A stretch of 4,404 bases of DNA, from the IMG/VR virus record IMGVR_UViG_2690316231_000014; one strand, given 5' to 3'. The position numbers and the translations under genes were made by a program. Shown one piece after another: positions 1-4,404 of the stretch (position 1 is its first letter; each line of letters begins with the position of its first letter). Source of the stretch: a virus (Duplodnaviria; Heunggongvirae; Uroviricota; Caudoviricetes). The notes below the pieces were generated by a model. That model was given only the letters and a program-made list of their open reading frames with translations. It made no database searches and was not told the DNA's origin.

Positions 1-834
1 CCACGGCACATCTGCAGCACTGCCACCATGGCACTGCGCGTTAAACACGGAGAGGTCAGCACGAAACTGTGTCAGCATGGCTGTAAACAGCGCAGGTTGC
101 TGTGCGTGGGTGGCGGCGCTCATGTCAAACTCACCCTGCATCCAGCAGACGGCCAGCAGAACGTTTTTGGGATTTTTCTGCAATGCCGCTTTTGTGCGGG
201 AAATCAGATCCTGATATAACGGCTTGCCCACCCCCCAGCGTGCCGAATCCTGACTGGCCCCCGTGGACTCGCTGAATGTCCCCTCCGCGCCCTGGGTAAA
301 TGCCGAACCACCACGACAGCATGGTACCAGCAGGATCCCCGCGTTATTCGGGATATACGGGAGCAGTTTTTTGGCAATATGTAAACCCTGACCGACACAG
401 CCGTACTGCCCTTTGCTCAGGTCAGCCCTCGGATGATTCAGCGTACTCATATCCTGCACATCATGCAGACAGTGGTCAGCCGGAATAATATCGTTATATC
501 TGCAGGCAGCCCCGCCCGGCGTCACTGTACTGCGGCGCGCCAGCTGTTTAATGCGCGGATCCGGAGCATCGTATGAATCCGGCAGCGGAAGCCCTTCACC
601 GTAAGCCATGGCATTGGACTGCCCGGCCAGTACGATGACGTAGTACCAATCCGGCTCAGATGAAGGGCCGACCTGTGGCTCTCCTTCAATAGCCACCGCC
701 TGCATCAGTGTGTACGGCGTAATGGCAACCGGTCCGCCGTATGGCTGCCAGCCCTCTTTCAGTTTGTGTGTCAGCTTTTCCGCAAGGTCTGACGGCGACG
801 CCGCCCTGACAACATCGTAATGTTTAATCGACAT
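1..834 (-). CDS. Partial CDS (N-terminal 278 codons; continues beyond position 1): prophage NanS-p-like sialate O-acetylesterase, SGNH/SASA-family hydrolase with a DUF1737-like N-terminus
   Basis: Hand translation of the minus strand from ATG at 834..832 is open for 278 codons to the window edge, which is why it is missing from the ORF track. It begins MSIKHYDVVRAASPSDLAEKLTHKLKEGWQPYGGPVAITPYTLMQAVAIEGEPQVGPSSEPDWYYVIVLAGQSNAMAYGEGLPLPDSYDAP. A GGGAG Shine-Dalgarno (forward 842-846) sits 7 nt upstream of the ATG. GQSNAMAYG is the block-I catalytic-serine motif of SASA/SGNH sialate O-acetylesterases. From memory, the N-terminus and overall architecture match the esterases encoded downstream of stx in Stx-converting phages. 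The four short ORFs in the track over 28-488 are in other frames. Confidence 0.75.
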   Translation of the reverse strand, partial: MSIKHYDVVRAASPSDLAEKLTHKLKEGWQPYGGPVAITPYTLMQAVAIEGEPQVGPSSEPDWYYVIVLAGQSNAMAYGEGLPLPDSYDAPDPRIKQLARRSTVTPGGAACRYNDIIPADHCLHDVQDMSTLNHPRADLSKGQYGCVGQGLHIAKKLLPYIPNNAGILLVPCCRGGSAFTQGAEGTFSESTGASQDSARWGVGKPLYQDLISRTKAALQKNPKNVLLAVCWMQGEFDMSAATHAQQPALFTAMLTQFRADLSVFNAQCHGGSAADVPW

Positions 835-920
835 CGAATTTCTCCCGTGTAGAGGAACAGAGTTAAAAAGCCGGAAGCGGAATCAAATCACAGGATGACC
901 ATCTGCCAGTGGCAGGTCAT

Positions 921-947
921 AAAAAAAAGGCTGCGCAATGCGCAGCC
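921..947 (-). terminator. Rho-independent terminator for minus-strand transcription (8-bp GC-rich stem, 3-nt loop, U8 tract)
   Basis: Forward 929-947 is GGCTGCGCAATGCGCAGCC, a perfect 8-bp stem (GGCTGCGC/GCGCAGCC) with a 3-nt loop. On the minus strand it is followed immediately by eight T (forward A8 at 921-928). There is no T-run after the hairpin on the plus strand, so it is unidirectional. Confidence 0.7.
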
Positions 948-1376
948 AGAACTCACAAGGAAAATGATAAAAGGAATAACACTAGTGATGTACGCATGGC
1001 GCCTCCCGCTAAGTTCTGCAATGATCAAACAGAACTCGCTACGTGCCCTTAAAACTCGATCATTTAGCCCCTCCAAGGAGGATTCACCATGCGGTTGATT
1101 TTTTAATAAACAGTAAACAAAAAAGTCAAGAATTATTCATTCTGTTCTTTCATCATCGGCCACAGCAATACCACAATGCCGCAGACCAGAGCGCCATCAG
1201 TCAGTACCAACATTATCCTGCTGGTGAAATCCATCATCACCATCACTAAAAGCAGGATCACAACAGCAAGCAGACACAGTTTATAAAACAATGTTCAGAA
1301 AACGCATTCAGCATGCCTAAGGTTCTATTCCTACGAATAGCCAACTTGCAACTTAAAATATTATTTATGCAGCCAA

Positions 1377-2135
1377 TTAAATTCTGGTCCTTACAATATC
1401 AACCTGAAGATTCTTATCTTGTGCTGATTGATAAATGACAAACCTTTTACTACCTGCATTGAAAGAAGTAGACAAAACCAGACAATTATCATAACGAGCA
1501 AGAACATAATACCAACCATCATTATAATTAATCATTTCATATTCTTTCTTAAACTGTGGTTTGTAATATCCTGTCAGAAATGAAAAAAGCCAAAAATATG
1601 CCACAAAAGCAATCATCACAATCTCAAAAAAATGTTTTTTTATAAATGGCTTATCATAGAAGCATGATACCGATAAAAATCGCCCATAAGATCTTATCGA
1701 AATTGTAACCGCCAGCGCAATCGCTGCTGACAGTAGCAAAAGAGGTACCTGAATCTTCTGTCTCAATATAGAAAACTCAATAATTGCCGGCACAAACAAT
1801 AATTCCACAGCAAAATAAAGGCGAAATACATTTAGCTCTTGCATAGAATGTTTTCTTTTCACTGCGAAAAAGAATACAACACCAATACCCCAACCGATAA
1901 GAAATATAGCAATGACGATAACTGCAAAAAATAAACTTCTGGCAACATCATCAACACCTGCACCTACAATCCACCATGGGAAGCCGTAGTAAAAAGAAGT
2001 ACCCCATCCATAGAAATAAGCACTCCCCCATCCAAGGCATCCCATGTAGGCAATAAAAAGTGAAGAACTCCTGAGCAGCGCACCATCCTTCATAACCACC
2101 CCAATACAAGATGATAACATTGGCTTACAACTCAT
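1377..2135 (-). CDS. Hypothetical multi-pass inner-membrane protein with a ~60-aa hydrophilic C-terminal domain; AT-rich cargo (moron) gene of unrecognised family. Start uncertain: ATG 2135, or ATG 2093 preceded by GGGGTGG
   Basis: A 252-codon ORF on the same strand as Q, about 160 nt downstream of the pR'-like promoter. No competing ORF of 60 aa or more is reported on either strand across this 759 bp despite its AT-richness. By eye there are 5-6 hydrophobic segments (GWGSAYFYGWGTSFYYGFPWW, LFFAVIVIAIFLIGWGIGVVFFFAV, VFRLYFAVELLFVPAIIEF, VPLLLLSAAIALAVTISI, FFEIVMIAFVAYFWLFSFLTGYY) and then a polar C-terminal tail. Hand-counted G+C in sampled 60-nt blocks is 25-37%, against about 50% in Q. 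The first ATG has no Shine-Dalgarno. Confidence 0.6.
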   Translation of the reverse strand: MSCKPMLSSCIGVVMKDGALLRSSSLFIAYMGCLGWGSAYFYGWGTSFYYGFPWWIVGAGVDDVARSLFFAVIVIAIFLIGWGIGVVFFFAVKRKHSMQELNVFRLYFAVELLFVPAIIEFSILRQKIQVPLLLLSAAIALAVTISIRSYGRFLSVSCFYDKPFIKKHFFEIVMIAFVAYFWLFSFLTGYYKPQFKKEYEMINYNDGWYYVLARYDNCLVLSTSFNAGSKRFVIYQSAQDKNLQVDIVRTRI

Positions 2136-2279
2136 AACAAAAGCAATTCAATGCCGTCAAGAGGTTACAGGCTAAAAAAACTCTATTACATTGCAGTCAG
2201 CATGTTTACTACACAAATACAATTCAGAGCATAAAAACTACTCGGCGGCAGGTTATTGAGACTCATCAATGACATGTAA

Positions 2280-2335
2280 AAAACGCCCATTATTGGTGTC
2301 AAGTTTCCCCAAAGTTATTCAAAAAGTCAATATTA
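2280..2335 (-). promoter_or_regulatory. Lambda-like late promoter pR' with Q-utilisation (qut) region
   Basis: Directly after the Q stop the minus strand reads GATTGCCACGGATGGCAACATATTAACGGCATAATATTGACTTTTTGAATAACTTTGGGGAAACTTGACACCAATAATGGGCG. From memory this aligns with lambda pR'/qut. The -35 TTGACT is at forward 2330..2325, the spacer is 17 bp, and the -10 position reads GAAACT (2307..2302) where lambda has TAAATT. A -10-like AATAAT lies in the initial transcribed region, as in the lambda pause-inducing element. Confidence 0.55.
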
Positions 2336-2372: not shown

Positions 2373-2996
2373 CTAACGTGTGATCGCATTCAAAATGTTG
2401 TCTGCGATTGACTCTTCCTTGTGGCATTGCACAACCAGAGCGTCATACAGCGGCTTAACAGTGCGTGACCAGGTGGGTTGGGTAAGGTTTGGGATTAGCA
2501 TCGTCACAGCGCGATATGCGGCGCTTGCTGGCATTCTTGAATAACCGACGCCTTTACATCTTCCGCACTCTTTCTCAGCAACTATCCCCCACTGCTCTGT
2601 TTTGGCTATATCAACCGCACGGCCTGTACCGTGGCAATCTCGGCATCTTGCGCCCGGCGTAGCGGCACTACGGCAATAATCCGCATAAGCGAATGTTGCG
2701 AGCACTTGCAGTACCTTTGCCTTAGTATTTCCTTCAAGCTTTGCCACGCCACGGTATTTCCCCGATACCTTGTGTGCAAATTGCATCAGATAGTTGATAG
2801 CCTTTTGTTTGTCGTTCTGGCTGAGTTCGTGCTTACCACAGAATACAGCCATTCCGAATCCGGCTTGTGATTGCGCCATCCCCATAGCAGCCATCACATC
2901 AGTACCGGAAAGAGAGTCAGAAGCCGTGGCCCGTGGTGAGTCGCTCATCATCGGGCTTTTTGGCGAATGAAATTTAGCTATGCTTTCGAGTCTCAT
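2373..2996 (-). CDS. Q: Late-gene antiterminator Q (lambda type)
   Basis: Complete 207-codon ORF, ATG 2996..2994 to TAG 2375..2373. The translation ([44 protein letters not shown] ... [18 protein letters not shown]) is, as recalled, near-identical to phage lambda Q. It carries the paired Cys cluster CRDCHG ... CGRCKG. The start overlaps the upstream stop (ATGA) and it is followed by pR'/qut. Confidence 0.95.
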
Positions 2997-3658
2997 GCGC
3001 CTTCTCCCTGTACCTGAATCAATGTGAGGTTTCCGCAGAACACTGCGCCAGTATCGATATACATCTGGTTGGCAAATTTGAGTGGTTTCACTGCTGGCGT
3101 ATGACCAAAGATGAACGTGTCCGCGCCTTTGATTTCTTTCACGATCCCGTCTTGTGAGTTGCTGATTCGTTCGCGGTTCCAGATTACCTGCTGATGATCA
3201 ACTGGCTTTCCAAACTCGTATTTATCACAAGGATAATCGGCGTGGCAGATGACATATTTTTTTCCTTTACTCACCAGTTCGATGATTAACGGAAGTTCAT
3301 CTGCTTTATGGGCAAGAGCTTTAGCCAGAATTTCTTTGTCGTAATCGAGATTAAAGAACCAGCCACCGCCATTAAGCAGCCAGTGATTGACGTTTCCACG
3401 CTCTGATAAGCCATCAATCATCATGTGCTCATGGTTTCCACGTACAGCTCTGAACCAGGGGAATGTGATTAATTCCAGGCATTCTACGTTCTCTGTACCG
3501 CGATCAACCAAATCGCCCACCGAGATAAGCAGGTCTTTTTTGGTGTCGAATCCTATCGTCTCCAGTTTTTTCATCAGGTTCGTGTAGCATCCGTGCAGAT
3601 CGCCAACTACCCAAATATTTCGGTATTTGCTGCCATCAATTCTTTCGTAGATATTCAT
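2993..3658 (-). CDS. Serine/threonine protein phosphatase, PPP-family metallophosphatase (lambda orf221/NinI-like)
   Basis: Complete 221-codon ORF. The PPP-family signature motifs are read directly: GDLHG, GDLVDRG, RGNHE. Most of the protein ([18 protein letters not shown] ... [26 protein letters not shown]) matches lambda protein phosphatase as I recall it, with a divergent first few residues. ATGA overlaps occur at both ends (with ninG at 3655-3658 and with Q at 2993-2996). Confidence 0.95.
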
Positions 3659-4258
3659 GCAACCTCACTTCTGCTGTTTCGCAGTTTTTTAAGTTTCTGT
3701 TGATACTCCGCCTTGATGGCCCTGCACTCTTCGACAGTCCAGCGATAGCGGTTATGGTTTGATTCGATTTCCTCTACTGCTTCCTGCCCGATGCGGCTAA
3801 TCAGTTCGACGCGATACGGAACGAGATTTCCGCTTTTGTGCTGGTTGCACACCACGCATTGCTTGTGAATATTGCGTTCATCAAATCGGAGTTGAGGCGC
3901 CGCAGCAGTTGTCCGGTAATGTCCGGCATCCCACTGAGCAGACGTGAGCGTTCCGCACGAGATACATGGTAAGTCGCGGTCTCTTTCTCTGATGAAGGCG
4001 TTTACGGCTTGTTGGGCTTGTTTAATCCAGTAACTGCGGGGCTTTAAGGCGAGTTTTCGAATCTTAAGTTTATCTTTCTGTTTCTGCTCCTCTCGTCGTC
4101 GTTTCTTCTCTGCTGCCTTTTCCGCTTTTTCGCGTTCTTTGCTTCGTCGTTCGAGTGCTATCTTGGTTCCACACTCTGGAGAGCACCACCACTGATTGGC
4201 GAATGCAGGGTGAAACCATTCCCGACATTCATCGTTTTTACATCGTCTTCGCGCTGGT

Positions 4259-4266
<8 letters not shown>
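3655..4266 (-). CDS. ninG: NinG / Rap recombination-associated endonuclease (lambda NinG-like)
   Basis: Complete 203-codon ORF, ATG 4266..4264 to TGA 3657..3655. The translation ([105 protein letters not shown] ... CVVCNQHK) is, as recalled, closely similar to lambda NinG (Rap) and shows its characteristic Cys clusters. The start overlaps the stop of the ninF-like frame (ATGGCTAA). Confidence 0.92.

Positions 4267-4404
<138 letters not shown>

Follow-up and report, generated by a model that had tools for sequence, protein, structure and literature searches.

Does a gene for a NanS-p-type sialate O-acetylesterase in the late region of a lambdoid prophage identify that region as the legacy of a Shiga toxin (Stx)-converting phage whose toxin has been exchanged for other cargo? 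The question is raised by a stretch of 4,404 nucleotides (nt) from a virus record of the Caudoviricetes (IMG/VR IMGVR_UViG_2690316231_000014; the whole stretch is hereafter called the window), in which an esterase open reading frame (ORF) runs out of the sequence at the left edge. An earlier note, made from the sequence alone, took this esterase as the mark of an Stx-phage-type late region without stx, saw a gene for an unknown membrane protein in the position of the toxin, and suggested cargo swapping at a conserved hotspot. We find instead that window 834..1 very probably codes for the N-terminal 278 residues of a prophage NanS-p esterase built of three domains, in the late operon of a lambda/434-like, non-Stx Escherichia coli prophage; the window is an ordinary late region of a kind already described, and is not evidence of a toxin-swapping Stx-type phage.

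The esterase fragment and its predicted activity

The esterase ORF lies on the minus strand, starts with an ATG at 834-832 and continues for 278 uninterrupted codons (834..1) before it leaves the window. As the earlier note had recognized, it is a partial ORF that combines the GQSNAMAYG nucleophile motif, contained in LAGQSNAMAYGEG at residues 69-81, with an N-terminal domain like that of Stx-phage esterases, namely DUF1737. Its assignment to the NanS-p family is likewise borne out, by the succession of DUF1737 and SASA domains and by the similarity to phage homologues given below. The features of the fragment are as follows.

1..834, minus strand: N-terminal 278 codons of the NanS-p-type sialate O-acetylesterase (Pfam, PDB sequence search, tblastn, BLASTP)
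842..846, minus strand: Shine-Dalgarno sequence GGGAG of the esterase gene (sequence reading)
688..825, minus strand: DUF1737 domain, residues 4-49, with the loop variant PVAITPYTLMQ including Tyr41 (PF08410, E 8e-16)
1..639, minus strand: SASA / SGNH type II esterase domain from residue 66 on, running out of the window at residue 278 (PF03629, 3PT5)
616..621, minus strand: codons for Gln72-Ser73 of the GQSN motif (alignment to 3PT5)

The scores behind these assignments are far beyond chance. In Pfam, DUF1737 scores 58 bits (cutoff 24) and SASA (PF03629, residues 66-262) scores 52 bits (cutoff 24.8; E 1e-13); the PDB sequence search aligns residues 60-278 with residues 17-233 of the chain of NanS/YjhS (3PT5, E 5e-92); and BLASTP against L0105 of phage 933W, a comparison proposed by the earlier note, gives 201 identities in 292 positions (69%, E 5e-146). 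In tblastn searches of a phage collection the fragment is 100% identical at the amino acid level to CPT_434_71 of phage 434, 93% identical to yjhS of several Stx1a phages, and 67-78% identical to its counterparts in most Stx2 phages. Judged from its relatives, the complete protein would have three domains: DUF1737 at the N-terminus, a catalytic domain of SGNH type II (SASA), and at the C-terminus, beyond the window, a lectin-like jelly-roll domain. The C-terminal domains of the full-length proteins of phage 434 and of the chromosome CP148423 match the solved NanS-p lectin-like domain 6YP6 (E 1e-29 for phage 434), and the catalytic domain is homologous to NanS along its whole length (3PT5, E 1e-122 for the full-length relative).

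The serine of the GQSN motif aligns with residue 30 of the 3PT5 chain, which is Ser19 of NanS once an 11-residue tag is subtracted; Ser73 of the esterase is thereby matched to the NanS nucleophile and Gln72 to Gln18 of the oxyanion hole. The equivalent of the catalytic His301 of NanS is kept as PTHFSS in the proteins of phage 434 and of the chromosome CP148423, both of which are identical to the fragment over its 278 residues. The earlier note had made the assignment hinge on active-site Ser, His and Asp residues, a yardstick that does not fit the NanS family, since NanS works with Ser19 and His301, and with Gln18 in the oxyanion hole, but without a catalytic Asp (PMC9063846). Chromosomal NanS (YjhS, 3PT5) and the prophage protein have the equivalents of Ser19 and Gln18 in common, as well as, in full-length relatives, that of His301, and neither has a catalytic Asp; NanS, however, has one domain only and belongs to the nan regulon, whereas the prophage protein adds DUF1737, a lectin-like C-terminal domain (seen in relatives) and a place in a prophage late operon.

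Every tested NanS-p allele of EDL933 and O104:H4 is an active esterase and supported growth on Neu5,9Ac2 (PMC8065619), and the protein encoded here is, to judge from homology, most likely a Neu5,9Ac2 de-O-acetylase. Ser73, Gln72 in the oxyanion hole and the His beyond the window would strip 9-O-acetyl groups from Neu5,9Ac2 and mucin sialoglycans, and this de-O-acetylation would turn sialic acid into a substrate usable by E. coli. A direct reading of the sequence finds no signal peptide, so that the enzyme would be set free when the cells lyse.

Several points weigh against this picture of a working prophage enzyme. Only about 45% of the gene (278 of ~616 codons, the length being taken from identical relatives) lies within the window, with the catalytic His and the C-terminal domain beyond its edge; the function of this allele is assigned by homology; the homologue in phage 2B8 is cut by an insertion sequence (IS) after ~323 codons; and at its right edge the window has the end of an IS100 element within ninF, so that the source prophage may be defective and pR-driven expression of Q may be impaired. 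Both insertions, that in 2B8 and that in ninF, also favour another reading, in which the esterase gene of this genome has become inactive as its prophage decays, being cut short or broken up outside the window or having lost its expression; the chromosome that matches best, CP148423, likewise has a degraded prophage (partial integrase, IS3, truncated ninB). We consider such decay of the gene unlikely, however, because 278 of 278 codons are intact, the encoded protein is 100% identical to that of functional phage 434, and the best-matching chromosomes hold the full ORF of 1851 nt.

A lambda/434-type backbone and the slot before the esterase

All genes in the window lie on the minus strand and follow the lambdoid order ninG, ninI, Q, membrane protein, TciB, esterase. 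The succession of Q, pR', cargo and esterase that the earlier note described is present. The backbone comprises the following features.

4341..4404, minus strand: terminal 64 nt of IS100 (IS21 family) inserted in ninF (64/64 identity to the IS100 end beside istA, then divergence)
4259-4340, minus strand: 3' remnant of ninF, adjoining the IS100 end
3655..4266, minus strand: NinG/Rap (Pfam)
2993..3658, minus strand: NinI Ser/Thr phosphatase (family searches)
2373..2996, minus strand: lambda-type antiterminator Q, 207 amino acids (PF03589, E 4e-58)
2286..2330, minus strand: lambda-type late promoter pR' with qut (alignment to lambda)

Q is identical to lambda Q at 201 of 207 residues, and Q_933W has no significant match in the window. 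Megablast against lambda yields ~96% identity from ninG through Q, with a match that ends at window 2298, just past qut; since lambda homology spans Q and stops right after qut, Q and its site have moved together, which fits the known specificity of Q. The ninG and ninI genes overlap at 3655-3658, and ninH is missing, likewise in phage 434; lambda and CP148423 differ in this respect.

On the other side of the junction, window 2254 to 1 is 99.3% identical in DNA to phage 434, a late-1950s isolate from the sewage of Paris, and 99.2% identical to PP2, a prophage of E2348/69, an enteropathogenic E. coli (EPEC) strain. The capsid protein of phage 434 is 100% identical to lambda gpE, and its terminase is 99.7% identical to that of lambda. 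Phage 434 and PP2 (esterases CPT_434_71 and E2348C_0688) share with the window the block of membrane protein, TciB, PasD2 and esterase; in both, the block follows and is driven by a Q82-like antiterminator, and a truncated lambda Q has LpxR/YlcG inserted behind it, whereas in the window an intact lambda Q with a lambda-type pR' is joined to the block at 2254-2298. On the sequence, then, the backbone is of lambda/434 type and not specifically of Stx-phage type.

At least 80% of the whole window is found in 425 of 5426 complete E. coli genomes, and at least 80% of the block of cargo and esterase in 606 of them; phage 2B8 is 97.4% identical to the window. A non-Stx prophage of ATCC 43894, a strain of the EDL933 lineage, has a backbone and cargo close to identical to those of the window (Q of lambda type, membrane protein, TciB) and an esterase of 92% identity. 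The block also occurs in prophages of E. coli chromosomes, and holin and endolysin genes lie downstream in every close relative examined; the esterase is accordingly placed between Q, seen in the window, and the lysis genes, seen in relatives, of a lambdoid late region.

The boundaries of the interval between Q and esterase can be placed by homology. On the Q side, lambda homology ends at 2298 and phage 434 homology starts at 2254; on the esterase side, homology to the Stx1a phage Stx1_499 starts at 847, 13 nt short of the esterase ATG, and runs on at 91.5% identity. The GC content, moreover, steps abruptly from 54-59% across the esterase to 29-41% in the adjoining cargo (window 1-900 versus 1200-2100), indicating separate origins of the two modules. 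We typed this interval in the 65 IMG/VR loci whose esterases are the closest relatives and whose sequence reaches at least 2.5 kb upstream; they sit behind at least four types of Q. Upstream of the esterase they have:

membrane protein and TciB: 13 of 65 loci
a TciB-like gene only: 30 of 65 loci
something else: 21 of 65 loci
stx1: 1 of 65 loci

Module boundaries and varied upstream content together identify the interval from Q to the esterase as a recombination slot, and the toxin is a rare occupant of this slot for this esterase allele. Swapping of cargo between Q and the esterase is therefore real, as the earlier note had proposed, and has already been described (PMC10462455; Pas-sRNA preprint), as has the occurrence of nanS-p in non-Stx prophages (PMC10462455); what does not follow is that an Stx-type phage has swapped its toxin here.

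Under that last explanation, stx and the tRNA genes of an Stx phage would have been replaced by the membrane-protein cargo, and the esterase would be a relic of the Stx-phage lineage. It draws on the 352 esterase-carrying records of a curated phage collection, more than 200 of which, among the names listed, are called 'Stx...-converting', on an Stx1a phage with a 93%-identical esterase fragment directly behind stx1AB, and on the Pas-sRNA preprint, which proposes an Stx-phage origin with repeated loss of stx. Yet the count in the collection reflects the bias of sequencing towards Stx phages, and the direction of exchange cannot be read from it; the impression that the esterase is an Stx-phage marker arises from the make-up of sequenced phage collections. 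Further, Q, pR' and the nin genes are of lambda type and not of 933W or H-19B type; the window holds no remnant of stx or of tRNA genes (tblastn with Stx1A and Stx2A returned chance matches alone, E > 4, and ARAGORN found 0 tRNA genes), so that the region is indeed without stx, as first reported; the homology to the Stx1a phage begins a mere 13 nt before the esterase gene; phage 434, a non-Stx phage with a lambda capsid and terminase, has the identical esterase fragment together with a cargo block of 99% identity; stx adjoins the esterase in a single one of the 65 closest loci; and according to the Pas-sRNA preprint fewer than 3% of the chromosomal PasA loci, which flank the esterase, adjoin stx. 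Descent from a former Stx phage is on these grounds very unlikely, and the claim that the esterase marks an Stx-phage-type region is not upheld.

The NanS-p proteins of Stx phages (933W L0105/z1466; phi24B gp84 = vb_24B_21) are like the one encoded here in their GQSN motif, their position between Q and holin and, as completed from full-length relatives, their three-domain architecture. Relative to them, however, the window esterase has a shorter DUF1737 loop and a shorter linker, with GQSN at residue 71 instead of 85; Q and pR' are of lambda type, not of 933W type; the head modules that go with it in the typed sample belong to siphovirus types and never to the 933W type; and where Stx phages carry tRNAs and stx in the slot, the window has a membrane protein, TciB and PasD2, as in phage 434 and PP2.

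Cargo of the slot and transcription of the late region

The note's membrane protein does occupy the position of the toxin, but it is one of three elements there: this protein, of family PF27470, is accompanied by a peptide of the DUF3927/TciB type and by the Hfq-dependent small RNA (sRNA) PasD2.

1377..2135, minus strand: AT-rich (29-41% GC) membrane-protein gene, likely start ATG 2093 (PF27470)
1133..1291, minus strand: DUF3927 / TciB-like two-helix membrane peptide of 52 amino acids (PF13064, E 3e-14; phrog_1470)
921..1092, minus strand: gene of the Hfq-dependent sRNA PasD2, 172 nt, seed UGUGAG (identity to E2348/69 PP2)
929..947, minus strand: 3' end of PasD2, an intrinsic terminator with the hairpin GGCTGCGCATTGCGCAGCC and T8 behind it (8 pairs, 7 of them G-C)

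The membrane protein has about five transmembrane helices and a small C-terminal beta domain, and some alleles of its family are named 'STM1630 family'. Local searches of Pfam, NCBIfam and PADLOC gave no match and PHROGs matched solely families of unknown function, while a large search for homologues yielded 108 proteins, every one hypothetical, nearly all from Enterobacteriaceae or related enteric bacteria and all belonging to PF27470. An AlphaFold2 model from a 31-sequence alignment (pLDDT 59) was too poor to use.

PasD2 is located by identity. The sRNA was mapped in E2348/69 at NC_011601 741157-741328 (Table S6) and verified by Northern blot, with probe and seed given in the supplements (PMC8550237); window 1132..820, between the stop of TciB and the start of the esterase, is identical to PP2 at 313 of 313 nt, which places PasD2 at window 1092..921. 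This identity, which takes in both the seed UGUGAG and the terminator, makes it a member of the PasD sRNAs, as does its place after the DUF3927 gene and before the esterase. A 2026 preprint gives the same pasD-esterase-holin arrangement, citing phage 2B8 as an instance of it, and links PasD with STnc100 (bioRxiv 10.64898/2026.05.13.724894); the Rfam STnc100 model covers PasD2 at full length but below threshold (41.4 bits versus a gathering score of 47), and the Rfam scan of the window found no family at its gathering score. A 62-amino-acid ORF at 1076..888, called a membrane protein in the phage 434 record, was rejected: it has no family matches and sits within PasD2 and its 3' flank, so that the sRNA was taken as the product. 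RefSeq annotates an antisense pseudogene in the PasD2 stretch. A candidate promoter for the sRNA, poor in its -10, is marked by a -35-like TTGACT at 1129-1124 (minus strand), right after the TciB stop and ~32 nt ahead of the 5' end mapped for PasD2; the sRNA may be transcribed from a promoter of its own.

The late promoter resembles that of lambda in its parts. It consists of a -35 TTGACT (2330-2325), a 17-nt spacer, a -10 GAAACT (2307-2302) and a -10-like pause element AATAAT followed by GGG (2294-2286), the lambda counterparts being a -10 TAAATT and a pause element AACGAT with GGG. Compared with lambda, the -10 is weaker and the pause element better. Of the lambda late region (Q, pR', 6S RNA/tR', S) the window keeps the -35, the Q-binding region and the pause-inducing element; lambda, however, has no esterase or cargo between pR' and S, whereas the window has ~2.3 kb of foreign, partly AT-rich DNA after qut.

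From this layout a course of transcription can be proposed. RNA polymerase would initiate at the lambda-type pR', and in the lysogen transcripts would mostly end at the PasD2 terminator, which is the sole strong intrinsic terminator on the minus strand between pR' and esterase and lies 87 nt upstream of the esterase ATG. Upon induction, the lambda-type Q, loaded at qut, would render polymerase resistant to terminators, so that the esterase would be co-produced with holin and endolysin. Published RNA sequencing of uninduced EPEC, in which the PP2 block is 99.2% identical to that of the window, gives DESeq2 base means of 11017 for pasD2, 226 for the membrane protein, 37 for TciB, 102 for the esterase and 3.5 for holin, which suggests that the cargo is expressed in the lysogen and that transcription largely ends before the esterase. 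Across uninduced EPEC lysogens the base mean of the membrane protein is 147-226, versus 3-6 for neighbouring lysis genes. Expression of nanS-p goes up under phage-inducing conditions (PMC10462455), and from termination before the esterase in the lysogen together with this rise on induction we infer Q-dependent read-through of the PasD2 terminator.

The promoter region supplies the points that tell against this scheme. The -10 departs from that of lambda, the counterpart of the phage 434 tR' hairpin is weakened, and the leader lacks a stable fold; transcription may therefore be shared in some proportion between pR' and a PasD2-specific promoter. A lambda-like tR' between pR' and cargo was sought and rejected, the 162-nt leader having no stable fold (z = 0.02) and containing only the weakened copy of the 434 hairpin. 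The junction with the 434-type cargo block falls within that hairpin (2227-2254, minus strand) and leaves a weakened stem of 4 bp; given this position of the junction, the PasD2 terminator may serve as the effective tR'.

DUF1737 and the phage head

The N-terminal domain raises a further possibility, namely that the esterase does not serve the nutrition of the lysogen alone but is primarily a virion component, in which DUF1737 would dock hexamers onto capsid hexons and so display or deliver the enzyme on lambda-type particles. The suggestion comes from a 2026 preprint on phi24B NanS-p (gp84), which by cryo-electron microscopy and proteomics assigns DUF1737 to the hexon centres as a hexameric capsid-decoration domain with Tyr42 as anchor; the protein encoded here keeps the conserved residues 4-33 and has Tyr41 in a loop that is 3 residues shorter. 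We scored the DUF1737 loop variant and the type of the downstream large terminase subunit (TerL) in 50 viral loci.

Variant A (that of the window, PVAITPYTLMQ): TerL of the lambda family in 21, of 2851/Stx1_499 type in 10, of Stx2d type in 1, of 933W type in 0
Variant B (that of 933W): TerL of 933W type in 9, of 2851/Stx1_499 type in 1
Variant C (a third variant): TerL of Stx2d type in 8 of 8

The loop variant thus tracks the downstream terminase and head module, and variant A never occurs with a 933W-type head in its 32 typed loci. For DUF1737 the mutual information with TerL type amounts to 1.14 bits, compared with 0.74 for SASA and 0.51 for the C-terminal domain, and 0 of 20000 permutations reach the observed value; DUF1737 is the most informative although SASA and the C-terminal domain lie nearer to TerL. 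A strict one-to-one match of variant and head had to be dropped, as variant A is found with lambda-family, 2851-type and, once, Stx2d-type terminases.

Set against docking, variant A occurs with two unrelated head modules; the typed loci are phylogenetically non-independent and physically linked (5-8 kb); and TerL only stands in for the capsid protein. Capsids of lambda type have T=7 and carry gpD, whereas that of phi24B is T=9; and the SSP motif proposed for self-processing is not kept in the first linker of the window protein (GPSSEP). The association of DUF1737 variant and head module is accordingly to be taken as a lead, not a result. That the esterase is primarily a virion component is possible, though we doubt it; and that DUF1737 is a docking module fitted to siphovirus heads (lambda and 2851/Stx1_499 type), with NanS-p as a virion-displayed, mucus-modifying enzyme in non-Stx lambda-like phages including 434, seems rather unlikely. 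If docking holds, display of NanS-p would extend beyond the T=9 podovirus phi24B, and the association of loop variant and head would be its footprint.

Published work already covers the presence of NanS-p in non-Stx prophages, the variable cargo slot that separates Q from the lysis genes, and the order pasD-esterase-holin. As nanS-p is widespread in non-Stx lambdoid prophages, it is unsuitable as a proxy for Stx phages, and the slot before it holds cargo expressed in the lysogen (a membrane protein, an abundant sRNA) more often than a toxin. Should the association between DUF1737 variants and head modules reflect capsid docking, phage 434 would offer a simple and safe model for the display of a sialate esterase on the virion.

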